Below, one piece after another: positions 3,691-56,352 of a stretch of 64,000 nucleotides of DNA. Origin of the DNA: Azolla caroliniana (taxonomy: Eukaryota > Plantae > Polypodiophyta); contig JBHGNT010000009.1 of assembly GCA_043228905.1 (NCBI GenBank), positions 7,812,001 to 7,876,000 of the forward strand. The letters are read 5' to 3'. The notes beneath the pieces are model-generated. The model was not told the origin of the DNA, searched no databases, and worked only from the letters and a program-made list of their open reading frames with translations. The first letter of the stretch is position 1; every line of letters begins with the position of its first letter. The position numbers were made by a program, and so were the translations under genes.

Positions 3691-3701
3691 CCCTTAGAAA
3701 C

Positions 3702-5328: not shown

Positions 5329-5344
5329 CAAGCTCAACATCAGT

Positions 5345-11802: not shown

Positions 11803-13510
11803 GTAACAAGGGCTTGAGGCGAGACAAGAGCTGACACCACAACAAAGCACCGACAGTCAATGGCTGCATTGGATCGGGGAGCAGGTGGCCGGGGTGGTAC
11901 GCCAACTGGAAGTTGAAGAGAGAGCCCAAGGGGACCGGTTGCTCACCACAATCGAAGAACTCGAGAAAGCCCGGTCGAGGATCCGGAGCATGGATGAAGA
12001 AGTTGAGAAGGCCAAAGCAGGTCAGTCTAGGGTCGACAGGATCAGAACCGGTGGCACTGGTGACTGAATAGATAAATAACACGCCTATAGTTCCTACAGT
12101 GCCGGACACAAGTGATGTGCGCGAACAAGAACTCTCCAACCTAAGGGAGGAGTTGGCTGCCTAGGAGGCCTTGAGGGCTAGAGATAGGGAGCAGAAGAAG
12201 ACAGTGGAGGAAGAGAAGCGAAAAATAGAAGAAAACCTCCAAAAGACTTAGGCAGCGAACAACCGGTTAAAAGAAGGAAAAGACAAACTGCTGCAAGAAA
12301 AAGAAAAGCTACGACGGATGGCAGAAGGAGAGATTCAATGAGTGAAAGAAGAACTCTGACAATAGAAAGACAGAGAAGACCGAGCAAGAAGCCAAATCAA
12401 CCGGAGGTTAAATCAGAAGACCGAGGACTTTGAAAGATTGCATCGGGATCACAAACACTTGGAAGCAGAGCACAAGAAGTTGATGGCGGAATGTGACCGG
12501 CAACAGGAGAAGATAAGAGAACTCTAGAATGAAGTAACCAAGAAAACGGAGGTGTTGTCGGAAGAACGAACGAAGGCGGTTGAGTCGGGAAAGTTGCTAG
12601 AGGAAGTGGCAAGAGAAAGGACTGTGCTTACCGGACAACACTATGACGAGATGGAACGAGCAAAATTGGCTTTGAATAGGCTTTAGACAACGTAGCAGAC
12701 CCAATTGCTGGAATATAAGGTGCAAGCATAGGCAACCCCGGGCTTGATAAAGAAGTTAAAGGAGGAAAAGCAGGCTGCGGAGGACAAATCCAAGATGGGG
12801 CTTAGCTTGATCTGCGCCATTGTACTAGCATTGAAAGAAAGGACAAAGAGTATGATTGGTGAAAGCTCAGTGCAATGGTGGTCGAAATGGGTACAACAGG
12901 CGGCGGAATTACAGACGATGTGAGCGGATGCGGAAAACCGAAGAAAGGACGGTGACAACTTCTACAAGATGGATGCAGAGAGTATTGTGACCATCTGGGA
13001 GGAGTTGTCAAACGATTTCTTGTCTCTGGTAGGGGAACAATTGGTGGTTGGCAGAACAGTTGGATGATGACCAACTTGCCACTCAACTCCAATTTGAGCG
13101 GTACGAGCGGGAGCGTAGACGGCAGGTGGCATCGCAAATGACGGTGACAATCAACATAAGTGACGGAGAGCAATCTCCGGAGCAGCCTTTGAATGTAGCC
13201 AGAACCGGTGGAGACCAGCCAGACAAAGCCCAAGGGGAGCACTCAGAAGTAGCTAAACCGGAAGAGCCAGAGGAAGCAGAACGAGAGCAATCGACGAAGC
13301 CAAGGATGTAGGAGCCAGAGCCGGAGGGGCCAAGACTCGTAGAACCGGGAGTGTATGAAGCCGGAGGGGAGGATCAAGCTGAAGAGCAACAACCACCACA
13401 ACAACAACAACAATTAGAGCAGCAGAAGCAGAAGCAGATGAAGCAACTACCTGATGAACTGTTGGAACCCCTAGACTAGAGTATTCTGGAAAATGAGTTA
13501 GGAGGCTAAC

Positions 13511-13554
13511 CCATGGGTTCGACGTACAAGGTACTATCCCACGGGCATGCCATG
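13511..13554 (+). other. Second copy of the tRNA-like 3' element
   Basis: CCATGGGTTCGACGTACAAGGTACTATCCCACGGGCATGCCATG immediately precedes the LTR TG. Confidence 0.72.
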
Positions 13555-13960
13555 TGTTGGTCGGTTAGGCTAAAGTATGAAAGGGGAGCCGGGTTTGGGA
13601 TAAAGGGAGTTGTGATAAGAATTAATTATTATAATTATAAGATCTAACAGATGGACCCGAAATCGGACCAGTTAGTAGACGGTTGCCGGTTGGCACCGGT
13701 TGGTAACACAGCTGAATACCTATAAAAGGATCCGGATAATGAATAGAGAAGTGTTGTTATTTTCATATCTTGTCTATCCTGTTATTTCTGTTCTGTGCTT
13801 AATAATGCTTATTCTACACGTGTAACTAATCGATCCGGATAACAATCGAAGAGGGACGACTCTGTGTTACGGTCCTTCTATCCCTTGTCATACCACCCGT
13901 TTGGTGAAGTGTTCCGAAAGGACACCCTATGTTAGTGGCTTGTCCAGCCCAGGATTAACA
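13555..13960 (+). repeat. LTR of the decayed extra-ORF Gypsy
   Basis: TG..CA ends resemble the intact element's termini (TGTTACTCGG..GATTAACA). TATAAAAG at ~13721. Confidence 0.75.
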
Positions 13961-19205: not shown

Positions 19206-19521
19206 TGTCATGATATGGCAAAACTCGAACCCATGACCTTATGTTATATGGGTCGAGCTCTTGACCATTATACCATCTATTGTAATATGTAGGATATTAT
19301 TTTCATTTAAGTTTTATTATAGGAAATTAATGTATATTCCAGATTTCTCTAGAACATTCTAGAAGCTTCGGGATTACTCCTGAGAACACTATAAAAGAAG
19401 GCATTAGGCATTATGTTAAACCAAATTGGTTCAACGCCAGTCTTAAGCCTCATAGCCATCTTGTACTTACTCTTCCTATAATATATCATCTGTTATCATC
19501 ATCTCTCTCTCTCTCTCTCTC

Positions 19522-19567
<46 letters not shown>

Positions 19568-22500: not shown

Positions 22501-24568
22501 CACAAAAACCTTGCTTATTTCCAGAACGCTCGGGTGCTAAATCGACGACAAGATCGGTGGGCTCAATTCCTCACACGTTTCGACTTCAAAATCACATATC
22601 GATCGGGGAAGCAACAAGGAAAAGCAGATGCGCTATCACGGTGTTCATATCTTGCACCTCGTCCTAGTGATCCAGCGTTTGATAATCAAAAGCAAGTAAT
22701 CTTGGGACCAACACGATTGCACACAACGCGGATTTTTCACACTCCAATGGATTCCCGGATTACCGATACCATAAGTGCGAACTTGAAGACAACCAATTTT
22801 GGTCAATACATTCTGGTGCACATTGATACCTCTCGGGCATCCTGTTCCCAATCTCAACAACTAGGTATGGACTATCGACAATTCGAATATCATGATGGTT
22901 TGTTATTCTTTAAAAATCTTGCATATGTCCCCGATTGCTCCTGTCACCTTCAAATCATCCAAAATTCCCACGACACCCATACGACGGGACATTTTAGTAG
23001 TACTAAGACGTTGGATCTCGTTCAACAATCTTTTTGGTGGCCCCATATGCGACGTTTTGTCGACGACTACGTTCGGACTTGTGATGCTTGCTACCGAGCA
23101 AAGATGCCCCGACACCATCCATATGGCTTGTTGGAACCCTTACCGATTCCAAGTAGATCTACCGGTCTCGAAGGGGTTCGATGCTATCTTAGATTTGCCG
23201 GTCTCGAAGGGGTTCGATGCTATCTTAACCATCGTCGATCGATATACCAAGATGGCACATTTTGTGCCGTGTACTAAGGTCATCACTAGTGAGGAAACTA
23301 CCGCCCTTGTCATGCGTGAGGTATTTCGGCATCATGGCCTCCCAGACAATATCATCAGTGACCGAGGAACTCAATTCGTCTCCAAATTTTGGCAGCATCT
23401 CTTCAAGATGCTCAAGGTCTCTTGCAACCTCTCCTCCGGCTACCATCCCCAGATCGATGGGCAGGTGGAACGAACAAACCAAACGTTGGAACAATATCTC
23501 TGGTGTTTTTTGAGTTATCAACAGGACGATTGGGCCGAGATTCTCCACTTTTCAAAGTTTGCATATAATAATGTTGTTCACTTCTCGACTCGGGTCTCCC
23601 CATTTTACACTTACACCGGTTCTCATGCTCGTTGGTCGGTGATCGGCACCCTGAGGCTACCTGCCAATCCTCGTGTCGAGGATCATTTCGAGAGGCTACG
23701 CAAGATCCAGATGGATCTCTCTACTCATCTTCGTCATGCTCAACACACAGAAGACTTATACGGATCTTCATTGGCTTCCCTCCTCTTTTGCCATCGGAGA
23801 TCGCGTATGGCTCTTACGTCGTCACATCAAGACTACTCGACCATGCGACAAGTTGGACTATCGAGGACTCGTTCCTTTCCGTATTACTAGTAAGTTTAAT
23901 GATGTCACGTTCCGCCTTGATCTCCCTCCGCATCTTCAGATACATCCGGTTTTCCATAGCTCTCTTCTTGAACCTTATAAAGCAAACACTATTCCCGATC
24001 GTGTTACACCATTGCCGCCCCCGTTTGAGTTGGAAGCTGGCCCGGAGTATGAAGTTGCTGCCGTCCTCGATTCCAAACTTGTTCGCAACAAAATTGATCA
24101 TTTGGTCGTCCGAGCAAACGTACATGGGAACCTGTCGAGCATGTCACCAATGCTCATGATCTTCTTGCTGAGTTCCACCGAAAGTATCCGGACAAACCCG
24201 GTCCGCATTCAGCGCCGACTCGTTCCACTCGTCGTCTTAAGGGGGAGATAGTGTCCTGATATGGCAAGACTCAAACCCATGACCTTATGTTATATGGGTC
24301 GAGCTCTTGACCATTATACCATCTATTGTAATACGTAGGATATTATTTTCATTTAAGTTTTATTATAGGAAATTAATGTATATTCCAGATTTCTCTGGAA
24401 CATTCTAGAAGCTTCAGGATTACTCCTGAGAACACTATAAAAGAAGGCACTAGGCATTAAGTTGAACCAAATTGGTTCAACACCAGTCTTAAGCCTCATA
24501 GCCATCTTGTACTTACTCTTCCTATAATATATCATTTGTTATCATCATCTCTCTCTCTCTCGTCCTCA

Positions 24569-24607
<39 letters not shown>

Positions 24608-24715
24608 TCTCTTTCCTCCCTCTCAAGAGTCTTACACAGTCCCGTCCTCTTAGTACTAATAGTACTTCCCTTCTCTAGTACTAATTCTCTCTCTGTTTTA
24701 GTACTATTCCTGACA
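19206..24715 (+). mobile_element. Full-length Tcn1-like chromovirus (degenerate gag-pol)
   Basis: LTRs 19206-19675 and 24252-24715, TSD ATCTT, gag (PMKFDGT..FRGFL, CLYCGGLGH..C), PR, RT, RH, INT, partly deleted chromodomain, PPT at ~24239-24250. Confidence 0.95.
19678..19689 (+). promoter_or_regulatory. Self-priming PBS (Tf1/Tcn1 type)
   Basis: TTGAACCAATTT is the exact reverse complement of AAATTGGTTCAA at 19423-19434, ~33 nt downstream of the LTR TATA box. No tRNA-type TGG PBS is present. Confidence 0.8.
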
Positions 24716-27799: not shown

Positions 27800-30439
27800 C
27801 TCGTTGTCTTCAGATGTACCAATCAAAGCATTGTCTTCGTCTAAAACCAAATGTTGTGACTCCAAATTATGTACATCAAACCGAGTTCGCCTTCGATCTG
27901 AGAAGGCTTATAGACTTGGCAATTTCTCTTTTATTATGTCTATTGTTGACTTCCTTAAACGTCCAACTTTTGTTAATGTAAAATAGTACACAATGATATC
28001 CACCTCACCAATGTCAAGGGTCGATGTGTTGCGAATATTTCTTTTCCTCTTTTTATTTCCTCTTGACGTTGGGCATTCCATCATCTCCAATGTATACTTG
28101 CTTGAAAATGCATTCTTGCTTCTAGTGTTATACCAATGCACCTTTATAGACTTGATCAGATATATGCTTTCATGCATCACCATGTCCAAAACTTTACCAA
28201 TGCAAAATTGGTGGCCTAGGTCATTGTTATCTGGGGGTGTAGCAATTAACATCCCAACCTTTAGTTCTTGCAAGTTGCCTTTGTCATCCTCAGTCCCACA
28301 TAAATGTCTCTTTGTGGTGGATGGACCAAACTCTCAACAATCGCATAAGGTGCATGGTGCTGCGATTGAGAACCAATAGATTGTTGTATAGACCATGTAA
28401 ATGGCATTTGCAAGGTCCAATTACTAGCAACACAATTTTCAATAATTTCTTGCTGATCTGTAAATAATACATCCCACCGCAATGTATCTTGTTGTGCCGC
28501 ATATTTCTTTGAAGCATCAATATGCATCTTTTTTTCATTTAAGGCTTGCATCCATAAGTTCCTTTACTCTTCTACCACATCACTATGCATTTCCTTTTTT
28601 GTCTCAATTGGCATTTGTTTTGCTCCATAAATAGTTGTAGATAGCATATGAAGCAGGAACTGGCAACTGCCTTCAGGCTCCCATTATGGCGATGATGGAT
28701 AGTGCTTTGCATACAACAACGTACAACCACTTGTGTCATTTTGCTGAATCAGGAAGATATGATTGAAGCTTATGTTTAATTGGGCTAGGACTTTAACATT
28801 CCCCTCCCCACCCTCTAATATGTATCTCTTAAAATCATATATCTCTTTTAGGTGGATCACATTCGGACATGGCATGTATGCATCACAAATGACATCAAGT
28901 AACTTTGGTAATGTGAAAGTGTCATTTCGGCCCAACTGTCTTGAGAATGTACTAAACATTTGATCAATATGGTCATGTGTGTGACCAACCAAGAGGAAGC
29001 TAACTTTCACTTTCCTAAACAATCCTTGGTTGACCAACATACTCAGATATCCGAAGATAGTTGAATTCTTGTTCTCCCTAGTTGTGTTGTCCAATTGAAT
29101 GTAGAGAACAGGGGCAAATGGATGGGCCCAACACATCAAAACCCTTTGAATCATTGTAACGGTCAAGTTTGGGTCATTGTGGACATTTGAGTAAGTTATG
29201 AAGACATGAGGTCTAACCGACCCATTATAAGCCAAGCATCCCACCAAGTGCATTCGAATGAGACATTCGTCATTCATGTCTTTAGGAAGTCGCCGCATGT
29301 GAGGTAGACATGTCTTCTTTTGGTCCATAACATCGATCATTAGACACATGTATTGTTTAGGATTCTTCAACGACTTCTCTCTATGATGGATCACTTTCTT
29401 TCGCTCCAAAGATTGGGCTTTGTGGTGGTCCTGTAACAACTTCTTATTCATGTACTTTTCCTTTGTTGTTTTGGCACCTTTAGCCATGCTCAAGATTGAG
29501 GTTTGCACAGATTGAGCAATACCCCATGCGTACTTTTTGTGGTATAATAACATTTGTAAATCGAGTTTTTCACAATCTGGTGAATTGGCTATATGTGACG
29601 TATCTATCACTCGACATACACATATATGATCTGTAGGACTCATATACCTCTCGTTGTGTGTAATTATCTGAGAGATGCATTCTGCATGTAGTTGGCATTA
29701 TTTCACAATTTAGGTTGAAGTAGTTCTTCATCCAACCAATAGCATGTCTTCTAGTTTCACCCTTCATACTTGGACAATTGCTACATTGGATACTAGGATC
29801 ACCATTAAGAACTTGTTGTTGCACTCGATGTAATCTCATGTTACTAACTCACAATGAAATTTTGAATGGAACTCTACAATATTGTTGTGCATAAAAGATA
29901 TAATACTCAAATGAGACAGAGATGGTTGATGCTCTACCACACACCATTTGCATGTGCGTTGAAAGGTAAGTGTCTTGCTCATCACCAACGAGTGAAAAAT
30001 AGTAACGCCTTAACTCCCACAACTTTTCCTTACCAATCTTGGACATGCAACCACGACAACAACACAATTTGTTGACATCTAATCCAAGTTGTTTCTCTGA
30101 TGTTACTAGGTCGAACCTTGCTCGACGTATTCTACATGGAATCCTCCATATGTGCATAGGGTTTGCTGAATGGTTGTCTTGTGAATAAACAATTGAATTC
30201 TCATTGGAGACAGCAATGTCGGTCTACACCCGTCCCTCACTAATGTTGGATGTTAGAGTGGCATTTCCTTTAGACTCTGTATCAACATTGTAATCGTATT
30301 CTTCCACAGACAACTCTTGATTGTCATCAATATGATTGGGAGTTTGGGGGTAAGATAGACCCACACAATATTCCTCAATAGAAAAAAGCGACCTTGGGAA
30401 AGAATACTCGTCAATAGAGAATTGTGAGTTTTGACTCAT
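27800..30439 (-). pseudogene. DUF7869/Sola1-like DDD DNA transposase, fragmented
   Basis: ID(V)MDQ, LYIQLDN..RENKN and FLLVGHTHDHIDQMFS motifs in 28684-29643, N-terminal Cys cluster (CCCRGCM), C-terminal FCIGKV..IKVHWY segment. No TIRs identified. Confidence 0.7.
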
Positions 30440-33950: not shown

Positions 33951-35279
33951 TCGATTTGACCCTTTACTATTAGATAATCCTGCATTTGCTCCTTCCAAAA
34001 GTTGAAGTTGAACTTCCTGAGACTCATTTTCGATGAGCCGGATGTGGATGCCATTCTTAACTCGAGTTGACTAATCGAAATTTCTATTCAGAGGTAGCTA
34101 CGATCAATGGGAGGGTGCAACTGGTTGGTTCACCCCAATTTGATCTAGCTGAATCGGAACTTAGTCAGTTGATCGGCCGATTCTGCTCGAAGTGGCTACG
34201 GCCTAATGTGGAGTAGAGCTAATTGGTCTATCCATTGTGATGTCTAGCTGAGTTGAGCATGAATCGTGTCGATGGTGTCATCTAGTTCAAGATTCCATTG
34301 TGAGTGACTACAACCAAGGAAGTGAGTATAGCGGGCTGGTGTACTTGAGATGAGGTCTACTCAAATAGAATGCGAATCAGAGAGGTGTCACTTCTCATAG
34401 AGCATTAGTGCCGAAAGAAGATTTAAAAGAAACTTGCTCAATGTATACCAATGATTTTGAGTTCTTCAAAGATCAAAGAAAAAGTGACGTTGAAGAAAAA
34501 TGACGGCCAGAAGCGAAGAACGCCTCACACTAATACTAGAGGTTGTAAATGTTCATCATTGATGGAAACAGAACCAACACTATTACATGAAGAATCAAGA
34601 ACAAGATGACAGAGATAAGCTTAGTAAGACAACATCAATGAGATCACCTGTTCTAGTGATCTTACACTCATGCGCATTGCTAAGTTTTTGTGGGGGCATT
34701 GGTCGAATAGTTTGAAATAATTCTTTGTGGGGGATCACGTGAAAAGTGGCGCTCGAATCAGGCAACCATGTGTGTGCATCTTGTGCACTATATAGAATTT
34801 CACCAGTCGACGAGCTTTCTAATTAGAGGGCTTCTCCTAACGGTGATTCGGAAACGTTGATTTGGTTGCCTGCTGAAGGTTGGTTCAAGTCAGAAGAGCC
34901 TTTTTTCTGCTCGAATTTTCTCCCTTTTCCCTTCTTTTTTAATGACAAATTGTTGATGGGTGGGGGGTGGAGCCCTTCAACAATTATATCATTTATGTTC
35001 TTTTTTCCTAAGGGGGTTGAACATGAGGGAGAGAGAGAGAGAGAGACAAAACAATTATCGAGAGGTAAACTTCTTCTAGTATCATTTATGTCCCCTTGGG
35101 TGGGGTTATATAGGTACATTACATGAGGGTTACGAATCAAGAACATACAATGGGGTTTGTAGGTTAGTTACATAACCTTGTAACAACCTAGACCCACTTT
35201 ACCATATTAATATACTCACACCTATGTGCAGATTTGCACATACACTTACACATGACGTTTCACTTATCTATCCATGTAC

Positions 35280-36030
35280 CGACATTTACACACTCACTGA
35301 TACACTTACAATCCCACGGATAACACAAACAATCGGAAACTTGGTTCTTGGCCTTCTTATAAGGTGTGCAATAGGCGTTCGAAGGCACATCTCTTGACTT
35401 CAACCATTGTCGATCATGTGTCCCTCTCGACCTGATTTGATTGAGGCTAGTCCTCCGAGACGTTCCCCAAGAGAAGTGGAGCAACACCGCCCCAATTGCT
35501 TTGTCGAGCATAAGCTTCGTGGAGTTGTTGGTGACAATTGTGTAGAATACTTCCTAACTAGTCGGGAGACTCAAGAGGAGTGCAAGTGACTTGACTTCTT
35601 CTTCGAAGTTCAGGCCTTGCGAGCAGAGTTCGGCCAGCACCTGACTAAAGGTGTATATGGGAGGTTGCTGGATCTATCTCCCTCATCTTCATGTTCAATA
35701 CATGCCGAATCAAGACGAGTTTGCATAAGCTTGAATTATTCTCATATATCGATTGAAGCTTTCCCCATAGATCGAATGCAATAAACTCTTTGCCATGCTG
35801 AAGTACATGTTTTCAGCTAGAAGCATTCGGATGGTTGATCTTGCAATCTCGTCAAGTGATCGTCATTCTTCAACTGTCATAATTAACGGTTTGCTATTGT
35901 GCTTGATCACCTCGATCTTATGTTGAATGATCAGAACATCCTTCATCATCTCCTTCAATAGGGCAAAGTTTTTGTTGTCAAACTTTTTGATATCGCAGCC
36001 TGTGCTAGATATTCAGGCCATTGTTCTTTG
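35280..36030 (-). pseudogene. Very old Gypsy RT/RNase H remnant
   Basis: LDKAIGAVLL resembles DASDxAIGAVL and YKKAKNQVSDCL resembles YKPGKxNxVADAL. Heavily eroded. Confidence 0.4.
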
Positions 36031-36447
36031 AGAGTTTTTGTGTTGGTCCAGTATTTTACTTTAGTCTTCTTCGTCTTCTTATATCGACGATGCATGGGTT
36101 TCAATTCGCACTTATGTAACCACTTGTTGACACCAATGGTGCCTGATCTTTGCCTGTGTATAGTACATTGATATATTGTATAGTACATTGATATATTGTA
36201 GCTGATTATGCAGAAGCAGTTTTGGATCTTGGTGTGGAGCGAGCAAGCGGGAGATCTTGTGTTCTACTCGTGCTACTAGTTATGTTCAATATGCATAGAG
36301 ATACAGAGATACACATATATATAGCAAAAGGGAAGATCTTACATTAATCGCCATCATTTTGTACATGGATGAATGCCTCCTATTTATATATGATAGGACT
36401 CACTTAGCCCTAATTCCAAGGAGTGTTCACACTAGAACATACAATGG

Positions 36448-36903
36448 TGTTAATCGGCTAATTACTAACTACTACCGATACAGAAGAGTGAACGTCGCTC
36501 CTCAACGTTCTAACAAGGAATTGTGTTTTACGAACGGAATTGCTAGATCAATAGGTAATTATCGTGATCGTTATTTAGCTATAAATTAGGAAGCTTGCAC
36601 TTAAGATCATAGACAACAGAGAAACACAGAATCCGTACAAGATATTCCTAACTTAAACTTATATTACTAAATAAAACGACCCTTCTTACAATGCCTTTGG
36701 TTCCCTTTTATAGGTATACCGAAGGTCTTTTCTCATCAAGAACTATTCCTACTCTCTAACAAGATTTACAAAATTATCTAACTAACTTAGTTCTCTTCGT
36801 TTTACTGCTGAGTCATTGATCCGAATAGTCGATCCGAACCGACTCTGTTTTTCGACGCTTTCCCACCTGTTCGGTAAAACTGACTGTCCGGGTCCGAGTA
36901 ACA
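36448..36903 (-). repeat. 3' LTR
   Basis: Direct repeat of 45329-45784. Confidence 0.96.
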
Positions 36904-36947
36904 CTTGGCACGCACGTGGGCCAGGACCTTGTCCGGCGAACCCACGC
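36904..36947 (-). other. tRNA-3'-half-like structured element at the PPT position
   Basis: GCGTGGGTTCGCCGGACAAGGTCCTGGCCCACGTGCGTGCCAAG fills the gap between the stop codon and the LTR. 34/44 identical to 13511-13554, with compensatory changes. Confidence 0.75.
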
Positions 36948-39575
36948 CTATTCCTGTAGCTCTTCATCCGAATCGTTCAGAATATCAAAAATCGAAGGTT
37001 CATCTGGCCTTGGATGTATTCCACCTATATCTTCCTCTTCATCTTCGTCTGTGTCACAGTCCTCCTTCGGAGCAGGTTTTGATTCGGTTGGCTGCTCTGG
37101 TTCACTTCTTCCGGCAGCTTGAATACCAGGAGTCTTGCTGGTTCTTTCGGCTTCGATTTTATCCAACTGGACGGAAGTGCCTATATCATTTTTGTCGAAT
37201 TCTTGCATAATACGTTGAATTTCTTCTCTGTAAAATGCCGCAATTTCATCCATATCTTTCATGATATCCTCTTGGATATTGTCAATATCCTTTTGTGTCA
37301 TTTTAAAAAAACCTGCACCTTGTACCTGACGGTTATTTTTGTCGGCACGCAATATCTGTAATTCCGCCGCTTGTGCTGTCCATAACTTCCATCCTTGCGC
37401 AAGGGATTCATCGATCAGTTTCTTTGCTAGGTTTCGATGTTTACCTATGATGTGCTGCACTTTGTCCCTAGTGATGCTTGCGACGTACTGGGCGGTTTGC
37501 AACTCTTTCTGTAAATCCGTAATAGTGGTTCGGTTCTCACTTTCAGCTCGCATTAATTTGGATTCGACTATATATATATCCAGCCGTCTTTGTTCCGCTA
37601 TCTTCCGAATTTCGTCCAGTTGTTGTTCGAATGCCGATTTCTCTCTACTCCATTCCTCCTGCTGTTCCGTCATTCTTCTGTTAACTTCTTCAAGACTCTG
37701 CTGTTTTTCTGTCAATTGACTTTCCTGTGACACTATATACCTTTCGAATTCTTCAATTTGTTCGGTATATGTATGATTGGCCGTCTTAGCTTCTTCTAGA
37801 TTTTTCTGTAATTCGTTTATTACTTGATTCTTTTCTTCGAGAGCTTTGTATTGACCCTTCTGAATGGTTTCTATTTGTTTTTCTAATTCTATAATTCGAA
37901 ATACTGCATTGTTGGCCCTTGTTGTTTCTGCTTGTCGTGCTTTCTCAGTATCCTCTAATTTCTGTTGCCATTCTGATTCCAACACCATAAGCCGTGCCTG
38001 TGTTTCCCATTTGTTTAGACTTTCCTTTAGTTCTTTATTTTCTGCTTGTATGTTACAAAACTGATGCTTCAGCACCTCCGCCGATGCTGATACACTTTTG
38101 TATCTTTCAGCCATATCACTGGCTGCTTTGCGTGCCGTTTCATATTCTTTATGAATTTCGACTAGTGCTTCATGTAATGGTGGCATTTCAATAGCCTCCC
38201 CTCTATGCTGTGCACTTCTTTTCCGGCCTATTTTCTCTATCTCTGCTTTTTCTTGAGGTTCCAACACTCCTCGTAAAGCTTTCTGTATCATTATTCGGTC
38301 ATTATGTTCTTGAGCCAGCCGTTCTGATACTTCTGTCAGTCTTTTAGCCAACCATTCAACCAGTTCGTATGAAGTTCCGAACTGCAAAATGGCCGCTAAT
38401 TCATGTGCTGCTGGTGGGATATCCAAGTATCCATGTGCTTCCCGAATGGCTACTTTTGAAGATTGTCCTTGGTGAGGTTGTGTCGAAATGCTCTCATCCC
38501 CTGGTTTTAGTACTTCTGTCACCACAGGCGTATTCGAGTTTTCATTTGTGCGTTGCCTTTTTGGTGCTGATCCCTCCCTGTTTTCTGGTTGTAATTGCCG
38601 ATTAGCCTTTTGTTTAATCCTTGTTCTTTGTCGATTTTCTGTTGGCTGTTGCTTGTGTCTCAAATTGTCAACTGTTTCTGGTTGTCTGTTTTCGGAATTC
38701 TCTGGTCTAGGTGGTTCCGACTGAGACATATTTGTTTGTATATTATCGGCATGTGCCGATTCTTCTTCTATCCATTCTTCATGTACTAGCTGTCGGTGTC
38801 TTCGTGGTGCTTGTATTATCGGTGGTCTTCTTGACTGAACAGGAGTTTCCGATTCTTGAATCGGAAACAATACTGATAACCAACGGCCAAAAATTTGCTT
38901 CATCGGTTTTCCTGTTTTTACCCCTTGTAGCTGCTCTCTCAGAGCTTCCCCCGACAATAGTGGCCAGTTGAAATCCTCTTTTTCATATGCGGCTATAATA
39001 AACCCAGCCCTTTTTTTCGGCATACAATAAAAACGAGGACTGACAAATCCCACCTCTAGTAAAAACCTCGCCACTTCATGAAAAAACTCATCCCGACCTC
39101 CATAAGTCTGATATGCTTTTGCCGAGGGTGAGTATTCCCCGAAATACGATTGGAGTGCTTCTGATGAAGGTTTTTTAACTGCCTCAAAACCTCCTCTTGG
39201 CATCTGTAATGTATTTCGTATTTTCTTTGTTGTGATTTTGGTGATGTCTATTTGTTGTACCAATTCTTCCGCCTGCGGGTGAGGTTCCGCTTCTGCTATT
39301 TTGATGAAACCTTGTAAGTTTCTTTCATGAAGCCACAATCGCAGTTCTTCAGATACAGGAATCGGCATGTCTTCTGTGTTTCCTTGTTCTGAATCACTTG
39401 TCGATGACAGTTGCAGATCTGCACAGTTTCTGTAGCGATAAAAATCAGAAAAACAGAGTTTGGGCGATCTAGGGCACGAAGGAGGCTCAGACTGTTTCGA
39501 TATCTGCACTCGTTTCCGTTGTTTTGGCGATACAGACGATACAGAAATATGTTTTAAAGATATTAATTTATGCAT
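36948..39575 (-). CDS. Extra ORF (875 aa; start may be MPIPVSEEL at ~39369): globular N-domain, disordered linker, long coiled coil, conserved C-motif; function unknown
   Basis: Uninterrupted 2.6-kb ORF between pol and the 3' LTR on the gag-pol strand. E/K/Q heptad-rich region, no evident TM helix, and a homologous motif at 12846-12986. Confidence 0.85.
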   Translation of the reverse strand: MHKLISLKHISVSSVSPKQRKRVQISKQSEPPSCPRSPKLCFSDFYRYRNCADLQLSSTSDSEQGNTEDMPIPVSEELRLWLHERNLQGFIKIAEAEPHPQAEELVQQIDITKITTKKIRNTLQMPRGGFEAVKKPSSEALQSYFGEYSPSAKAYQTYGGRDEFFHEVARFLLEVGFVSPRFYCMPKKRAGFIIAAYEKEDFNWPLLSGEALREQLQGVKTGKPMKQIFGRWLSVLFPIQESETPVQSRRPPIIQAPRRHRQLVHEEWIEEESAHADNIQTNMSQSEPPRPENSENRQPETVDNLRHKQQPTENRQRTRIKQKANRQLQPENREGSAPKRQRTNENSNTPVVTEVLKPGDESISTQPHQGQSSKVAIREAHGYLDIPPAAHELAAILQFGTSYELVEWLAKRLTEVSERLAQEHNDRIMIQKALRGVLEPQEKAEIEKIGRKRSAQHRGEAIEMPPLHEALVEIHKEYETARKAASDMAERYKSVSASAEVLKHQFCNIQAENKELKESLNKWETQARLMVLESEWQQKLEDTEKARQAETTRANNAVFRIIELEKQIETIQKGQYKALEEKNQVINELQKNLEEAKTANHTYTEQIEEFERYIVSQESQLTEKQQSLEEVNRRMTEQQEEWSREKSAFEQQLDEIRKIAEQRRLDIYIVESKLMRAESENRTTITDLQKELQTAQYVASITRDKVQHIIGKHRNLAKKLIDESLAQGWKLWTAQAAELQILRADKNNRQVQGAGFFKMTQKDIDNIQEDIMKDMDEIAAFYREEIQRIMQEFDKNDIGTSVQLDKIEAERTSKTPGIQAAGRSEPEQPTESKPAPKEDCDTDEDEEEDIGGIHPRPDEPSIFDILNDSDEELQE

Positions 39576-39758
39576 GATGACTTAAAGAATAGTAATTACT
39601 ATTAATGTAGGAATTAATTAGTATTCACTCTACGTGTAGTGGTTGTACTTGTTACTAATAATCATGCAATTCCTCTTTCTATTTATAGTCGATTCATACT
39701 GTTTATGGCAAGATTGTATTTCACATTTGACAAGAACTATTGAGTGAGTTAGTTAGTG

Positions 39759-39785
39759 TTTTTTTTTTTTTTTTTTTTTTTTTTT
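39759..39785 (-). repeat. Poly(A) tract (sense strand) starting in the pol stop codon
   Basis: ~27 consecutive T on the + strand. Confidence 0.9.
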
Positions 39786-42315
39786 ACTCTTCCGTTTGAA
39801 TAAACGGATTTACCGGCATATCTCCCAAATACGGTTTAAGCCGAAATCCATTTACCCATTTTGGTAAAACCTCTCCAGTCAATGATCCCAGTTGGTACGT
39901 ACCATTTTTACTATTAATTATCCATACTGGACCTGTCCATCTATACCGGAGTTTCCCAGGCATAAGTCCCATTCTCGTCTGGAATACCAATACCGGTTTC
40001 CCAATTTCGAATTGCTCTTCCGATTTCCTTCGATGTCGGTTTACGAATGCCTTGATTTGTCTCTGCTTGTGTTCTAGTGCTGACATTGATTGAATCCGTT
40101 CTTCTTCTAATACTAATAAAGCCTCTTTGCGTATCTGCTCCGATTCTATTTCATTTAACTTATTCGTTGCTTGGATACGAAGTGTCGGAATTTGAAATTC
40201 GATTGGCATAACGGCTTCGAGTCCGAATGCCATTCGGAAAGGTGTTGATTTAATGGATGTTTTGTACGAAGTACGATATGCCCATAATGCACTATTTAAC
40301 TTTTGATCCCAATCAGTACGATTTTCATTCACTATCTTCTTTAAAATTGTTTGAATTGTTTTATTTGTTGATTCTGCCAATCCATTAGCTTGGGGATAGT
40401 AAGGCGTACTTTTCTTATGAACTACGGCATAGTAATTGGTTAATTCGTTAATTAACTTGTTAATAAAATGAGTGCCTTGATCGCTTACCAATTCTATTGG
40501 GCAACCGAATCGACACCATATATACTCATACAGGAATTTTGCTGTGGATGCTGCCGTATTGTCCCTGAGAGCTTTTGCTTCAACCCATTTTGTGCAATAC
40601 TCAGTCGCAATTATGATATATCGATTACCGGTTCTTGCAGCTGCTGGTTTGAATGGGCCAACAAAATCTAAGCCCCATTTCTGAAATGGCTCAAGAGGTA
40701 AAACCGGTTGAAAAGGCATTCGATCCTTTTCGGTTGGTTGCCCCATTCTTTGACACAAATCGCATTTCTTACAGTATTCGTTAGCATCTTTCATCACCGT
40801 TGGCCACCATAACCCGCTATTCCATATTTTTCTGGCTGTTGCTTCTCCTGCGTAATGACCGCCAGCAATTCCACAATGTGACTCTGTTAATATGGCTGAT
40901 TTTTCAAATTTTCGTACTGCCCTTCGCCATATTCCATCCGCTCCTTTATGATACAACATGTCATTAAATAAACAAAAATTCCGACTTCGTACTGCAATTC
41001 TTTTTCTTTCATCTATCGACATGTGTTCGGCCGGAATTCCTGTTGATAGAAATATCGTCATTTCGGAAATCCATTCATCCTCTTTTTCCTCATTCACTTC
41101 ATGTGCTTTTACGGCCTCCACCCGAAATAATTGAGTATCTGGAAAATCATCTTTAACCCCAACCGCTTCTTCTCCAGACTCAAGCCGACTGAGATAGTCA
41201 GCAATCGCGTGTTGTGCTCCTGGTCGATGTATAATGTCAAACTCAAACTCTTGAAGCAATAATGTCCATCGGGCCAACTTGCCTGTCAATTCTTGTTTGG
41301 AAACTAGATACAGTAAAGCCGAATGATCCACATGAAATGTAAATTTCTTACCCAAAAGGTAATGTCGAAATTTGTTCACACTATATATCATTCCCAAAGC
41401 TTCTCTTTCGGTTGTTGAATAGTTTCTTTCGGCCGACGAAAGTTTCCTACTGGCATAGTATACCGGCCTATACCAGTTTGGTTCGGATAATTGCATTAAA
41501 GCACTGCCTATGGCAATGTCCGACGCATCGACGAAAACATGAAATTGTTTGTTCCAGTCCGGTGGTTGAACTACCGGTACGTTCGTCAGCATCTTCTTGA
41601 GACATTCGTACGCATCTTGTTCTATACTTGTCCATATAAAAGGAACTTTGTGTACTGCTGTGTGTAACGGAGTAGCAATGTCTGCTAGATATCTCATCAT
41701 TCTACTGTGCCACCGAATTTGACCCAAAAATCTACTTAGAGCTTTAGCATTTGTTGGTGGTGTTGCCTCAATAATTGCTTTAACTTTATCTGGGTCCACT
41801 GCAATCCCTTCTTGACTGACAATATGCCCAAGTAATGTACCACTCATTACCCCGAATGCGCATTTGGCTGGATTTAAACTAAGACGCCCTTTTCGACATT
41901 TTTCTAAACATAGCCGTAAATGCTCAAAATGATCCGCTTTCCGACTATATACTGCAAAATCATCTAAAAACACCTGCATGAAAGCTGGAATATATTCCCC
42001 GAATATTTCCTGTATTACCCGCTGAAATGTAGCTGGAGCTGTTTTTAAACCGAACATCATGACTACTGCCACAAAGACACCCCATTCTGTGACGAAAGCT
42101 GTCTTTTCCTGATCTTCCGGATTCATCCGTACCTGGTTGTACCCACTGAACCCATCCAAGAAACTATAAATTTCATGTCCCGCTACTGCATCTAATATCC
42201 CATCTGTGAATGGCAATGGAAACGCATCCGTAATTGTCGCTGCATTCAATTTTCTGTAATCCACACATACACGAATTTTCCCATTCTTTTTCGGGACGAC
42301 TACTATCGGACTCAT
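39784..42315 (-). CDS. Pol: RT - RNase H - integrase
   Basis: FLDGFSGY, FLDD, VDASD..YYASRKL, HHCC Zn finger, GLDFVGP / SDQG / E triad and WTGP C-terminal module. Confidence 0.95.
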   Translation of the reverse strand: MSPIVVVPKKNGKIRVCVDYRKLNAATITDAFPLPFTDGILDAVAGHEIYSFLDGFSGYNQVRMNPEDQEKTAFVTEWGVFVAVVMMFGLKTAPATFQRVIQEIFGEYIPAFMQVFLDDFAVYSRKADHFEHLRLCLEKCRKGRLSLNPAKCAFGVMSGTLLGHIVSQEGIAVDPDKVKAIIEATPPTNAKALSRFLGQIRWHSRMMRYLADIATPLHTAVHKVPFIWTSIEQDAYECLKKMLTNVPVVQPPDWNKQFHVFVDASDIAIGSALMQLSEPNWYRPVYYASRKLSSAERNYSTTEREALGMIYSVNKFRHYLLGKKFTFHVDHSALLYLVSKQELTGKLARWTLLLQEFEFDIIHRPGAQHAIADYLSRLESGEEAVGVKDDFPDTQLFRVEAVKAHEVNEEKEDEWISEMTIFLSTGIPAEHMSIDERKRIAVRSRNFCLFNDMLYHKGADGIWRRAVRKFEKSAILTESHCGIAGGHYAGEATARKIWNSGLWWPTVMKDANEYCKKCDLCQRMGQPTEKDRMPFQPVLPLEPFQKWGLDFVGPFKPAAARTGNRYIIIATEYCTKWVEAKALRDNTAASTAKFLYEYIWCRFGCPIELVSDQGTHFINKLINELTNYYAVVHKKSTPYYPQANGLAESTNKTIQTILKKIVNENRTDWDQKLNSALWAYRTSYKTSIKSTPFRMAFGLEAVMPIEFQIPTLRIQATNKLNEIESEQIRKEALLVLEEERIQSMSALEHKQRQIKAFVNRHRRKSEEQFEIGKPVLVFQTRMGLMPGKLRYRWTGPVWIINSKNGTYQLGSLTGEVLPKWVNGFRLKPYLGDMPVNPFIQTEE

Positions 42316-43511
42316 GTTGATTTTTTGACGGGTCGAATAAATCCTACTTTTAAGAGTTTATCGATTTCTTCTTTTACTTTGATAGCATAATTCGGATTCA
42401 ACCTGTACCTGCGTTGTTGTACTGGCTTTGCATCTTTATGCAAATTGATTTGATGTTGACAAAAAGCGGGATCCAGACCTTTCATATCGTCAAAGGACCA
42501 TGCAAAAACATCTTTATATTGTAATAGTAATGTTGTTAATGTCCGTTTGTCATTTTCCATCAAATCTCTAGCAATCAAGATTGTTTTTCTTTCAGCATCC
42601 TCTACTCCTGCCAAATCAATTTCCTCCAATGCTGAGGCTTGCACTCTCTGAGATACCTGCAATTCCTTATCTGTAGCTTCTTGTTGCATCCGTATTTCTT
42701 TTATTGTTTGCTCATCGATTGGCACTTCTTCGTGTGAGTCTACATATGGTGTTAATGCTTGCAAAATATCTACCTCAAATAGAGGGATGATTTTTTGATT
42801 ATCATCAAAATACTGACTTTCTTCTTCCTCGTCCAATCCTTCCATCATATTAACTGCTTCTGCATATACAGGTAAACTCTGTTTGCTTGTTGTTACTTTG
42901 TTGTGCGTCGGAATCCTGACCTTGTTTTTTCCTTTTCTAAATGTTAGCACATTTTGTTTCCAATTTTGTTTAATATTAGCTGTCTTTAACCATGGTCTCC
43001 CCAATAACAAGGGGTATGCTCCCTGTGTTTCTAACTGCAAAATTACTGCCGAAATCTGAAAACTGTGTCCCCCGATTATTACATCGAGTTGTCGAAGCAA
43101 ACCAATCGGTCGTACCGTACTTGTATCTGCCATTCGTAACCAAAACGGACATGCTTCCCATTCCGTGATTCCCAGTTTTTCACATGTAGTTTTGTTAATC
43201 ACATTAACACCCGAGCCTCCATCTATAATCACATTTCCGATTTCTTGCCCGTAAAGTATTACCTTAATAGACGGATTCTGTTCATCCATGATCGAAGGGT
43301 TATTACTTGGCTGATTGTAGTGTACTGCTATTTGTTCGGAACCTTTATATGTAATTAATGCTGCCACTTTTTCTGTAAACCTTGGTACTAACTTAAGTAA
43401 GCCCTTAAGTGGTAATGACACTTGACAATCAGCCAACAGTTTCCAAGTTTCTTCCTGTTCCTTATTCTCCAATGACTGTTGTACAGCGATGTCCTGGTCA
43501 ATGTTATTATC
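42312..43511 (-). CDS. Aspartic protease and RT N-terminus, in frame with gag after one TAA
   Basis: VIIDGGSGVNVI, LLLGRPWL, KPVQQRRYRLNP. Ends at a frameshift in the WxSP motif. Confidence 0.85.
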   Translation of the reverse strand, partial: DNNIDQDIAVQQSLENKEQEETWKLLADCQVSLPLKGLLKLVPRFTEKVAALITYKGSEQIAVHYNQPSNNPSIMDEQNPSIKVILYGQEIGNVIIDGGSGVNVINKTTCEKLGITEWEACPFWLRMADTSTVRPIGLLRQLDVIIGGHSFQISAVILQLETQGAYPLLLGRPWLKTANIKQNWKQNVLTFRKGKNKVRIPTHNKVTTSKQSLPVYAEAVNMMEGLDEEEESQYFDDNQKIIPLFEVDILQALTPYVDSHEEVPIDEQTIKEIRMQQEATDKELQVSQRVQASALEEIDLAGVEDAERKTILIARDLMENDKRTLTTLLLQYKDVFAWSFDDMKGLDPAFCQHQINLHKDAKPVQQRRYRLNPNYAIKVKEEIDKLLKVGFIRPVKKST

Positions 43512-45269
43512 TTATAACATTCGATTCACATTACTCTGATTTGCTTCCTCCACCCATTCCTTTGCGGCCTTCCGAACTTCTTCCTGAATTTCCCACTCTG
43601 ATTGTTTGCTTTTGCTGCGTGTCGTTACTTGCTGAACTTTCGGTATTACCATATTAACTGCTGGACCCTTTCCTTTAACCGGACATTGATTAGCATAATG
43701 GCCTAGTTGTCGACAAATGTAACAAGTGGGCACAAATGTTGCACTGGTCTCTCCATGTGCAAATTGCCCGTTATTAAATTGCTGCTCTTCATTACCATTC
43801 GAGTTTTGTTGGTATTGACGTGTAGCTTTTGGTTTGTAAAATCTCTTGTTTTTATACCTATTCGGCCTAAATTGTTCAGTATTATCATTTGGTTGTGCTA
43901 TATTGTGTGGTATCCCGAACTCCTGATTTGGCGAAAAATTACTCTGTTGAAACATTTGATTATTTTGTGGAACAGTTTGAGTATTATGTTGAAAAGTCAT
44001 ATTACCCGGTTGAAATGCCGGATTTGGTTGAAATGTAGAATTCGGTTGCACATTCGGACAGTTCTGTTGAAACCCTTGAAATGGTGGATTACCTTGTTGG
44101 AAACTTTGATTATTTTGTTGAAAATATTGATTCGGATTCTGTACGAATAGTGGGTTGGATTGAGCAAAACCTGGTTGAAATGCTTGAGTCACTTGAGTGG
44201 GTTGCAAATTTTGTTGTGAAAAGATCTGATTTGGCTGTAGAACCGGGTTCTGTTGTACATTTTGCTGATTTTGTGAATTATTATTTTGATAACCATTGAA
44301 CAGATTAGTGTTATTTTGGTAACCATTGTCAGCAAAAATTTGTCGTACTGACGCCGTAGTCTTATTAAGCAGATTATATTCACATTGTTCTACGGAATGT
44401 AATTTTGAATGACATATTGTACAATGTGTTCTTAACGTACAGTCAATTGCCGAATGCCCCGTATTTAAACAAGTGGTGCATTGCACTGCTTGTCGAAATT
44501 GTAACTCCTCCATTGTTGGTAATGTACAGTGTAATGCCGACATGTCCATACTCTGAACATTGACCGGTGGTCGACCCATTTCTATTGCTTTATCAATGAC
44601 TTGTTCGATAGTCTGATTTCGAAAATCGAACACTTTCAATGTCGTCCTTAATGGTTCTTTTACAGCTTCTAGAAAGACTTCTTTTAATTCTTTATCCGGA
44701 ATCGGTCTTGAAATCTGAAGCTGTAAGTTCTGAAATCGTATCACAAACTGAGATACTGTTTCATTTTTTTCTTGATATAACGCATAAAATTGCGCAATCA
44801 AATCCTTCTGCGGAATTTGTTGATGAAATAATTGTAAAAATTTACTAGTTAATACTTCGAAGGATGGAAATCCTTGAAGACCGTTCTGCGCAAACCAATT
44901 AGCGGAATATCCGTCTAATGATAAGACAAACTCAGCGATTTTTGACTTATCTTCGGCATCTGCCGACAATCGCTGTGCTCCATGGTTAATCTCCCATGTC
45001 GTTAAGAAATCCCTAACATGTGCTTCCGCATCTGTTCCTTCCCGGAACTTAGAATAAGTATAAGGCATATCGTCCCAAATGTCGTAAAACGATACCTCTT
45101 CCGTCTGTTTTTCGTCTGAAGGTAATTGATCGGATAAGTCAGGGAGTTTCGACCACTTTGTGCTTGATTCCGGCTGTTCTTGCGTAATGAACGCTTGCTG
45201 CACTACCTTCGTAACTGACCTTGTACGAGGGCGCTTACAACTGACCGGTGCCTCCTCTTCATACGACAT
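43512..45269 (-). CDS. Gag with three CCHC zinc knuckles and a Q/N-rich region
   Basis: Retrotransposon gag core (QEKNETVSQFVIRFQNL) plus CTTCLNTGHSAIDC, CTICHSKLHSVEQC and CYICRQLGHYANQC. Confidence 0.88.
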   Translation of the reverse strand: MSYEEEAPVSCKRPRTRSVTKVVQQAFITQEQPESSTKWSKLPDLSDQLPSDEKQTEEVSFYDIWDDMPYTYSKFREGTDAEAHVRDFLTTWEINHGAQRLSADAEDKSKIAEFVLSLDGYSANWFAQNGLQGFPSFEVLTSKFLQLFHQQIPQKDLIAQFYALYQEKNETVSQFVIRFQNLQLQISRPIPDKELKEVFLEAVKEPLRTTLKVFDFRNQTIEQVIDKAIEMGRPPVNVQSMDMSALHCTLPTMEELQFRQAVQCTTCLNTGHSAIDCTLRTHCTICHSKLHSVEQCEYNLLNKTTASVRQIFADNGYQNNTNLFNGYQNNNSQNQQNVQQNPVLQPNQIFSQQNLQPTQVTQAFQPGFAQSNPLFVQNPNQYFQQNNQSFQQGNPPFQGFQQNCPNVQPNSTFQPNPAFQPGNMTFQHNTQTVPQNNQMFQQSNFSPNQEFGIPHNIAQPNDNTEQFRPNRYKNKRFYKPKATRQYQQNSNGNEEQQFNNGQFAHGETSATFVPTCYICRQLGHYANQCPVKGKGPAVNMVIPKVQQVTTRSKSKQSEWEIQEEVRKAAKEWVEEANQSNVNRML

Positions 45270-45304
45270 CCATTCGAATTGTTCTCTGCTTAATTGCAGA
45301 TGTA

Positions 45305-45317
45305 ACCGGGCGTGCCA
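45305..45317 (-). promoter_or_regulatory. Primer binding site, tRNA-Arg type
   Basis: TGGCACGCCCGGT lies 11 nt downstream of the 5' LTR and resembles the complement of a plant tRNA-Arg(UCU) 3' end (recalled, not database-checked). Confidence 0.7.
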
Positions 45318-45328
45318 AAATTCTTCTG

Positions 45329-45784
45329 TGTTAATCGGCTAATTACTAACTACTACCGATACAGAAGAGTGAACGTCGCTCCTCAACGTTCTAACAAGGA
45401 ATTGTGTTTTACGAACGGAATTGCTAGATCAATAGGTAATTATCGTGATCGTTATTTAGCTATAAATTAGGAAGCTTGCACTTAAGATCATAGACAACAG
45501 AGAAACACAGAATCCGTACAAAATATTCCTAACTTAAACTTATATTACTAAATAAAACGACCCTTCTTACAATGCCTTTGGTTCCCTTTTATAGGTATAC
45601 CGAAGGTCTTTTCTCATCAAGAACTATTCCTACTCTCTAACAAGATTTACAAAATTATCTAACTAACTTAGTTCTCTTCGTTTTACTGCTGAGTCATTGA
45701 TCCGAACAGTCGATCCGAACCGACTCTGTTTTTCGACGCTTTCCCACCTGTTCGGTAAAACTGACTGTCCGGGTCCGAGTAACA
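45329..45784 (-). repeat. 5' LTR
   Basis: Direct repeat of 36448-36903, with a minus-strand TATAAAA at ~45590. Confidence 0.96.
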
Positions 45785-48052
45785 AATGGTGGGAGTAGGA
45801 CTTTTACCCCAACATTCTCTCCATTCGAGCTATCAATGGGTAAAGAAGTAGTCTTGTCACATACTACTAACAAGACACATGCAAGAGAGCTCGATGTATC
45901 CAAGTTTTTAGATGAATAGAATGAGAGAATGCAAGTACTCACACTTATAACTCATATCACACAACAAGATTTGCACCTTCATGAACTAGAAAAGTGGAAA
46001 ACATCAGATGCACAACCACATGCCAACATACCCATTTGACTCCCACAAACCTTATTATCAACAATGTCCCCAAATCCATCTGTTTTGGTTCATAACCTCC
46101 TATGGTCCCTCTCAACATTTCACACATTTTTCGTAGTTAATCATGACATTGGAAACCACCATCCACTCTAAACATACAAAAGATATCATAAAACACACTC
46201 TTTCTTCCACTTAATACCATGGTCGTCAACATAAAACACATTATATTCCACATTCCATTATCATCATCACGAATCAAATAATTTCAAACACACTTAATTT
46301 CTTTGCACCCTCATCATCGTCATAAAAGACATCATATACCACATCCTAATGATGAAAACCATTCTCACACGTAATTTTATCTTTTTCAAAGTTCAAATCA
46401 TTCTCCAAAGTACCAACCAATACTTTTGTCGATTTCATCAACAAGGATATCTTAATATAATTCAACATCATTGTTTCAAATTGTATCATAATCAAAGACA
46501 CTCGCACATCATTATCATATACATTCACATCATCATAAGAGCATCACCGACCATCTTTCCTTTTTTTCTCTCATTTCTTTTTTCCAAATGATGGCTCATT
46601 CCAAACTAACGTTATATAAGCTTACCCATAGTGCTAGCTAGGAAGATCTCCTAGTCCATCCATGGGGTTTTGATGCCTTCTCTTGTCTTCTTGGAATAAA
46701 ATTGTTAGAGACATAGTGCCTTTGATGTGAAAGAAAGGCATATAAATGTGTAGGAACCCGAAAGAAAAGCAATTTTGCAACAAAGTGACTTTGGGCTCTA
46801 TGTGGGACCTAGAGTCATCCATTTGTTTTCACTGAATCATACTTAGAACTTGTAAATTTTCTATCTATATACATTTTCATGTGTGTCGGTACCAAAAAAT
46901 AAATCAATTCCCAAAAAGTGTGAGTTTGGGCTCTACATTTCTCAATTCCTTTTTCTATTCCCTTCTTGAAGCTATGAAGAGGTGACCGATCTATATATTG
47001 TAGGAATGATGTGTGTGGGGCCTAAAGTTGTCCATTTCTAGAATTTCTTTTCATTTCTCACTCAAGTCTAGAACATATAGTTTCAAGAATGTAGAAACAA
47101 AATGAACAACTTTGGGCCATACATCGATTCTAGATCAACTTTTGTTTTCTGATTAGTTCTAAATCTTATGGATTTGGTAGGAGTATTTAGTTTCAAGAGT
47201 GTCGCCTTGGTCCTAAATAGTTTTCCTTTGTTGGTCCAAGGCTAAAACTTGTGCATCGTTATCCCCATACATTTAGATGTGTGCTTGAACTAAAATAGAA
47301 AACCTAGAACATAAGAAATTGAAACGTAAATGACACAATTAAGAGTGTAAACAAAATGTGACAAAAATTGTCAATGGAAATCGTGTCTTTTGATATAATA
47401 GGTTCTTAATTACAATTTTTTTTGCAATGTGACCAATCTACACACTACTCTTCATGGAAGCACTTCACATCTTCCGTTAATTATCGTATGTAAAGTTTTT
47501 CAAGCATCAAATTAGGCTAACTTTTACCAATCCTTGATTAGACTTGTTTCTTGTAGAGTCTTGGAAGCCAATCCTCCGTGGAATATTAGAAGTCCCAAAG
47601 ATACCTTGATTAGTATTGGCTTATTACTTTCTTCTATATGATGGACAATCATAGGAAATTTGGCATTGCTTGAATCCCATCAAGCAAAACATGATAGCAT
47701 AACACAAAATTGGTGTGGATAACTACCATGCCCTTAGGTGGAATCATTTCTATATAATGAACAAGGGAATGTTGTAATCTCCAATTATTTCTACATTCAT
47801 AAACATGATGCTATTGATAAATTATTATTTAATTTGTTAAATGAATGAAAATACAAAACCTAGTGATTCCCTACTGGTAAAGGAATTGTGCTTCATCAAT
47901 GTACTCCTTTTCAATTAGTTAAAGTGTTAATGAAAGCTTGTCCCTCTTGATGGGGGAGACGGTTGAAAAGCTGAAATCGGCCGAGAGGCCGAACGAGGGT
48001 CAGTTGGCCGAAATCGACCGAGACACCGAATGGAGTCGGCTGAATGGTCGAA

Positions 48053-55600: not shown

Positions 55601-56346
55601 CCTCCTCCATGTGGGAAACATGTGAGCTCTTCCGAACCTGGCCACTTGGCTAAACCATTATATATGACCATCTGGTGCCGACTACCGAGTTCGAGCAAAT
55701 GATGGCCAAAGCTCGTGGCGTCTGCACCTTGATCCTTTGATCTACGTGTGGTGTCTATGTCTGAAGGATCGACATTTACCATTTCTAGGTTTCTATTCAT
55801 TTGAAATATTGTGCATTGTCGGGATTGGGTTCTCGCATTAAAGTCTCCTACAAGGAATACTTTGCCTTGGGAAGAATATCGGATTATGTCATCCGATAGA
55901 GGTTCATATGGGGAAGGCCCATGTGGCACTCCGTCATCAACTAATCTCGCCTCGCCAGCCAGATTATAACGAGAGCCTTTTGGGGGGAAGTAACAAATGG
56001 CGAAAATTACTGCCTTGTCCTTGCTTGTGGAGACTTTCACCCACATAAAACGAGCTTCTGGGTCTGTGGTCAGTATTTCTATCCTATTATGTAGCTCCCT
56101 CCGAAACAATATTGCGACACCTCCAGATCCCCTGGTAGTGCATCGACGTGAGGTTTGTCTAAAAGCTGACTCCCAACGAAATCCTTCGACTCGTGGGAGT
56201 CCCCTATTTGGGCTTTGGTGTGTTTCTACTAGGCAAACTATATCTGATTCCTTTAATATCCCCTCTAGGCGGCCGGGGTGTGTCCAGAGTGCGCCGTTAC
56301 AATTCCATAAGGTCATCCTAAGTGTGTTTTCTGTCACATGGGCCAC
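52623..56346 (-). pseudogene. LINE ORF2 (APE-RT-CCHC + C-terminal extension)
   Basis: TGA at 54925, 1-nt frameshift at ~53287 and TAG at 52872. Fragments otherwise join in frame. Confidence 0.85.
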
Positions 56347-56352
56347 ACGCCG

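Follow-up and report, generated by a model that had tools for sequence, protein, structure and literature searches.

The element and its additional gene

The 64,000-nucleotide stretch of Azolla caroliniana DNA analyzed here (contig JBHGNT010000009.1, positions 7,812,001 to 7,876,000; hereafter the window) harbors on its minus strand a Ty3/gypsy long terminal repeat (LTR) retrotransposon with an additional sense open reading frame (ORF) between pol and the 3′ LTR (Table 1). An earlier note on the window had described an intact 875-aa accessory ORF, and this is what we find: one stop-to-stop frame spans 36948-39581 on the minus strand, and the ATG at 39575 gives 875 residues down to the stop at 36948. 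LTRs, a target duplication and the order gag, then protease (PR), reverse transcriptase (RT), RNase H (RH) and integrase (INT), place the element in Ty3/gypsy. The element is young, and its two 456-bp LTRs differ at 2 positions. The element type, the leaf and plant metagenomes in which homologs occur and the Streptophyta neighbors in the Atlas all point to a land plant as host. A contig in DNA run X3 joins both flanks without the element, representing either an empty allele or a paralog of the flank.

Table 1. Coordinates of the element, its additional ORF and the decayed relative within the window
Feature	Position	Strand	Remarks
Whole Ty3/gypsy LTR element	36448..45784	minus	5-bp target duplication AATGG at 36443-36447 and 45785-45789
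5′ LTR, 456 bp	45329..45784	minus	WTCTTG starts at 45646 and 45623; TATA-like CTATAAA at 45594
Primer-binding site	45305..45317	minus	11 nt past 5′ LTR
gag	43512..45338	minus	Retrotrans_gag, zinc knuckles; in-frame stop ahead of protease in window copy
PR-RT-RNaseH-INT	39784..43511	minus	window copy frameshifted at RT start (42312-42357)
Predicted internal promoter	39680..39740	minus	WTCTTG at 39736 and 39714, CTATAAATA at 39688; 113 nt before ATG
Additional sense ORF, 875 aa, intact	36948..39575	minus	between pol and 3′ LTR
Residues 1-69	39369..39575	minus	basic, Ser-rich, predicted disordered; dN/dS 0.30-0.42
N-domain, residues 70-242	38850..39368	minus	globular; predicted VANC/PMD/Transposase_32-like fold; dN/dS 0.04-0.06
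Linker, residues 243-375	38451..38849	minus	predicted disordered; KRQR at 339, like a nuclear localization signal (NLS)
Helical block 376-500 and predicted coiled coil 501-700	37476..38450	minus	dN/dS 0.09-0.11 and 0.18-0.26
C-terminal motif, residues 718-764	37284..37424	minus	47-mer of the earlier note
tRNA 3′-end-like stretch, CCA end	36906..36947	minus	polypurine-tract position; 2 nt before 3′ LTR
3′ LTR	36448..36903	minus	WTCTTG at 36765 and 36742; TATA-like box at 36713
Decayed relative: 3′ half of ORF, tRNA-like stretch, LTR	11820..13960	plus	
Relic ORF part	about 11820-13505	plus	5′ side cut by another element's LTR
Relic tRNA-like stretch	13510-13552	plus	
Relic LTR	13555-13960	plus	

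Because of the stop between gag and protease and the frameshift at the RT start, the window copy is probably non-autonomous, with its additional ORF intact. Other copies read through where its pol is broken, and the gag-protease junction is read through in locus L044. Since pol is broken and the ORF is not, the protein of the window copy could still act in trans. The primer-binding site is likely of the tRNA-Arg type, judging from a long complement and the anticodon loop in L068. In this lineage the site lies 9-11 nt past the 5′ LTR rather than adjoining it (window copies, L001-L003, L041, L045, L076).

A Pfam scan of pol detected RT, one RNase H and integrase, with neither a second (archaeal-type) RNase H nor a chromodomain. 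An additional archaeal-type RNase H in pol is reported as a feature of Tat/Ogre/Retand elements (PMC6317226), and membership in that group was rejected since the scan found none. By the features given for Athila in the same source, namely a non-chromovirus pol, absence of the archaeal RNase H and presence of an additional ORF, the element is an Athila-like non-chromovirus, an assignment by features rather than by an RT tree.

Selection and domain architecture of the encoded protein

Homolog searches returned 7 long homologs and, out of 258 candidates, 97 fragments; at E 0.001 there were 333 representatives. Of the 88 loci found, 80 were retained. Pol lies upstream on the same strand in 21 of the 32 loci having at least 550 nt of upstream DNA. 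Compared with five related loci (L001-L005), the ORF displays a dN/dS of 0.16-0.20 by the Nei-Gojobori method, which applies no transition correction, and contigs of high coverage are blends of several copies made by the assembler. The ratio for pol is 0.05-0.14 in 11 of 26 segments, and purifying selection on the additional ORF equals in strength that on pol. With ratios this clearly below 1 across copies, the view of the ORF as a selected accessory gene is borne out.

Constraint is unevenly distributed along the protein. Against the same five loci, the N-terminal and linker parts reach 0.30-0.45 and the acidic tail 0.24-1.34. The N-domain, not the C-terminal motif, is the most conserved part, with a median of 0.08 in the 20 loci with unsaturated dS among the 51 covering it. 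The start motif of the ORF is in frame in 21 of 51 loci. The first 27 residues (39557-39575 and 39510-39530, minus), basic and Ser-rich, are retained in diverged homologs and contain PKQRKRV, which we take to resemble a classical nuclear signal; a second conserved Met at residue 70 begins the folded domain, so that two isoforms are possible. The NLS-like KRQR at 339 is kept in all five full-length close homologs. Coiled coil or disorder is predicted for over half of the 875 residues.

The position of the ORF, which is that of env, and its long coiled coil would suit an env-like protein or a movement protein carrying particles from cell to cell. Such a role is most improbable, as none of the 8 full-length proteins has a membrane-spanning or hydrophobic leader segment, in agreement with the earlier note; the Kyte-Doolittle mean over 19 residues peaks at 0.87 for the ORF and five close homologs and at 1.31 for homologs P0112 and P0241.

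In the C-terminal motif a W and the pattern Q-A-x-x-L-x-x-L-R-x-D-x-x-N are invariant in 14/14 aligned sequences, and residues 701-810 display a dN/dS of 0.09-0.17 (3 loci). The motif is likely an interaction module. The earlier note had aligned these 47 residues without gaps to 12846-12986 on the plus strand, with 23 identities. The alignment holds, with an as-is identity of 22/47; the 23rd falls on a position where the relic carries a stop codon. The best of all other 47-residue six-frame windows (about 127,700) reaches 11 identities, as against 22, and within the window tblastn aligns 91 aa of the ORF to the relic at 34% (E 6e-9). The relic preserves the 3′ half of an ORF related to that of the element; over 339 aa it is 42% identical to homolog P0112 (1072 aa, intact), in which both the N-domain (38% to the window ORF) and the C-terminal motif are present. 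The LTRs of the two have indeed diverged, as had been noted: blastn aligns nothing between those of the element and that of the relic.

Promoter module and 3′ end

VANC, an accessory protein of VANDAL DNA transposons, is reported to bind short motifs in non-coding parts of its own element (PMC5735166), and for this reason non-coding DNA was examined for motifs. A TATA-like box precedes the domain in 27 of the 40 sequences with enough upstream DNA; 25 of these 27 carry WTCTTG 20-26 nt upstream of the box, 19 of them in two copies. The motif occurs 44 times against 1.7 expected (maximum 6 in 500 samples), a count that is not a probability, since the loci are kin and the TATA candidate was picked by most motifs; the fixed spacing was not selected for. 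Two TATA-bearing sequences without WTCTTG appear to lie in integrase coding sequence. No TATA-like match is present in the other 13 of the 40, including L003, whose ORF is intact.

The same WTCTTG-TATA module is found in the LTRs of the window element, L002 and L057. Across the window it matches 6 times against 0.9 expected: three times in the element, once in a solo LTR, once at 4548 behind a related pol relic and once at an unassigned site; five of six matches fall in this lineage. The solo LTR (about 34953-35325, minus) is 76% like the L076 LTR and carries the module at 35143. At 2030-4600 (plus) lie the remains of another element of the lineage, with a primer-binding site at 2030, an integrase relic at 2507-3678 (about 50% identity) and the promoter module at 4533-4580.

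A spliced transcript for the ORF, raised in the earlier note, becomes less likely, because the apparent splice acceptor of the window copy is absent from L002-L005, while the TATA module is conserved. By sequence, transcription from an internal promoter is the likelier route. After the pol stop, a purine run of at least 11 (39760-39791, minus, and related loci) is present in 16 of 24 sequences, as against 21 of 154 windows in other parts of the element; in L044 it reads A6G6. The run could represent a polypurine tract (PPT), either internal or former. Given the LTR-like promoter just behind it, an older LTR of greater length may be the ancestor of the ORF cassette.

At the 3′ end, a tRNA-like stretch precedes the LTR in all seven intact cases (window twice, L001, L002, L003, L041, L045) and ends in CCA in six, L045 differing by one base. 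L030, L036, L049 and L078 are cut before the end of the ORF and stand outside this count. None of the seven ends has a PPT, and neither ARAGORN nor Rfam made a call on the stretch at 36906..36947. The stretch was said to follow the stop codon directly, which applies to both window copies; in L045 and L041 about 15-40 nt lie between.

Such an arrangement would fit a protein that binds the tRNA-like element and helps start the second DNA strand without a PPT. What lies behind this suggestion of binding is the co-occurrence in 7/7 intact 3′ ends, which shared descent explains, and we find the claim unsupported. We consider such a role quite unlikely, as the spacing between stop and stretch varies, the fold points to a binder of double-stranded DNA and the Pfam scan of the ORF matched no RNA-binding family. 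Also counting against it, similar domains are reported from Athila elements of flowering plants (PMC11728184). Those elements are not known to lack a PPT.

Predicted fold and putative function

Only one structure, VANC21 (PDB 9lnk), stands out among the matches of the predicted N-domain model, and it spans the whole domain, at 8% identity and with the N-domain about 55 residues shorter. The model of homolog P0118 matches a PF20167 cluster with TM 0.61/0.60 over 168 residues, under the naming bar, and for PMD the one pointer is an Atlas feature score of 0.82. The DUF1985 domain of VANC21 is reported to resemble PMD (bioRxiv 10.1101/2024.09.27.615353, PMC13547354), and by way of this resemblance the model supports the earlier guess of a remote PMD-type fold. 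For residues 70-243, both the fold and its likeness to VANC21 and to the Transposase_32/Athila-ORF models are predictions. That the VANC21 match reflects a chance likeness of helical folds, and that the ORF encodes an accessory factor of unrelated origin, for instance one that suppresses RNA silencing, is in our view unlikely.

At curated cut-offs, Pfam DUF1985 (PF09331) matched neither the ORF nor 97 aligned members nor 10 distant homologs, and PF20167, PF03078, PF10536 and PF04195 had no match in the ORF and its homologs. Membership in VANC was rejected on this ground and because the carrier is an LTR retrotransposon, not a VANDAL MuDR DNA transposon; membership by sequence in PMD, PF20167/PF03078 and TRP28 was rejected likewise. 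The TRP28 alternative proposed for the N-domain fails in addition on orientation, Retand TRP28 ORFs being antisense and the window ORF sense. The protein may still work like a VANC/PMD regulator.

With modest confidence we favor the reading that the ORF is an accessory gene conserved in a lineage of non-chromovirus Ty3/gypsy elements and likely transcribed from its own internal promoter. Its predicted product would be a nuclear regulator with a VANC/PMD-type DNA-binding domain, keeping element promoters active in the face of host silencing. Transcribed from that promoter, the ORF would yield a protein that enters the nucleus through basic motifs (KRQR at 339) and binds element DNA with its N-domain, while the coiled coil and C-terminal motif would oligomerise or recruit a host factor. 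The LTR and internal promoter would thereby be kept active, a positive feedback with anti-silencing effect. Of the three functions raised in the earlier note, this favors anti-silencing (or transcriptional regulation). That the paired WTCTTG sites are the target of the N-domain is a tentative proposal.

Several observations weigh against WTCTTG as this target. In place of WTCTTG, the relic LTR (13555) has CGGTTG three times (13680-13705, plus; -40, -33 and -23 from TATA). WTCTTG is kept across diverged families with little change, unlike VANC motifs; it is paired in both promoters but forms no long arrays. Given the CGGTTG in the relic and the conservation across families, a host factor could bind WTCTTG. 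The N-domain might then be a true PMD/Transposase_32 relative serving as a protein-interaction scaffold, for example by tethering the integration complex to chromatin or recruiting a host factor, with WTCTTG bound by a host transcription factor. The large share of coiled coil and disorder and the selected C-terminal motif agree with a scaffold, as does a 2025 preprint as of which direct DNA binding was not shown for PMD-C proteins. We hold it to be somewhat unlikely, since the one match with a solved structure binds DNA sequence-specifically and the module matches in the window fall largely within this lineage.

With VANC21/DUF1985 (PMC5735166, PMC13547354) the favored regulator would share a predicted fold across the N-domain, a place as accessory gene of a plant transposon, the combination of globular domain, coiled coil and disordered parts, and a short repeated motif in the non-coding DNA of the element. 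It differs in its LTR-retrotransposon carrier and in a motif that is paired and promoter-anchored, whereas VANC motifs are reported in family-specific tandem arrays; DNA binding and demethylation by its own domain are putative. Athila 3′ ORFs with Transposase_32 (PF20167) or ATHILA ORF-1 (PF03078) are likewise sense, placed between pol and the 3′ LTR of non-chromoviruses without archaeal RNase H, and bear NLS-like motifs (PMC11728184, PMC6317226). The ORFs here are longer (875-1103 aa) and have a lineage-specific C-terminal motif, and the element has a tRNA-like end in place of a PPT, in a comparison by features, not by RT phylogeny.

PMD proteins (PMD-A of Gypsy/Ogre/Tat, MAIN/MAIL1/MAIL2) are linked by fold through VANC. 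PMD with coiled coil is known in Tat additional ORFs, and MAIL proteins are reported to act through motifs near transcription starts (PMC5418596, PMC4408406, bioRxiv 10.1101/2024.09.27.615353). The PMD survey covers angiosperms; Tat lineages I-II and moss Tat-like elements are reported without additional ORFs. Retand/Grande TRP28 ORFs resemble the window ORF in their place between pol and the 3′ LTR and their coiled-coil (Smc-like) parts, and the Grande protein is described as nuclear with its own promoter; unlike the window ORF they are antisense, in elements with a second RNase H (PMC11963269).

Elsewhere in the window, a 337-aa frame at 28684-29697 (minus) resembles by eye part of a DDD transposase from a DNA transposon. 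Frames labeled by eye as LINE-type endonuclease and RT occupy 53272-56352 (minus), where CG is clearly depleted across codon borders (14 vs 34.5 and 19 vs 31.4). Repeated LTRs with CT-microsatellites (1281-1705, 4890-5335, 11385-11810, 19206-19680, 24252-24715), one of which cuts the relic ORF at about 11810, presumably belong to a second, chromovirus-type gypsy family.

LTR retrotransposons make up most of large plant genomes. What additional ORFs do in Ty3/gypsy elements of plants has long been an open question, their origin and role being called unknown in the literature. ORFs at this position are well known, and transposon-borne PMDs countering silencing have already been proposed in print, which limits the novelty. 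The literature searched, which did not cover the VANC21 structure paper and Sasaki 2022, contained no earlier link of such an ORF to the VANC21 fold and a shared promoter module. In the present case a candidate trans factor, whose predicted fold leads to a structure solved with bound DNA, comes together with a candidate cis site that keeps a fixed place in two promoters. It is possible, if still doubtful, that in seed-free plants a lineage of LTR retrotransposons carries a VANC-type anti-silencing factor of its own, which would bind paired WTCTTG before the LTR and internal TATA boxes in a sequence-specific manner. If so, anti-silencing of the sequence-specific kind, which to date has been shown in DNA transposons, would occur in LTR retrotransposons as well. 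The Athila env-position ORFs (Transposase_32/ATHILA ORF-1), PMD and VANC would then belong to a single ancient superfamily of DNA-binding regulators carried by transposons. As to the origin of PMD/VANC, left open in PMC5418596 between a host gene and a retrotransposon, retrotransposons would be a possible source instead of the host gene MAIN.
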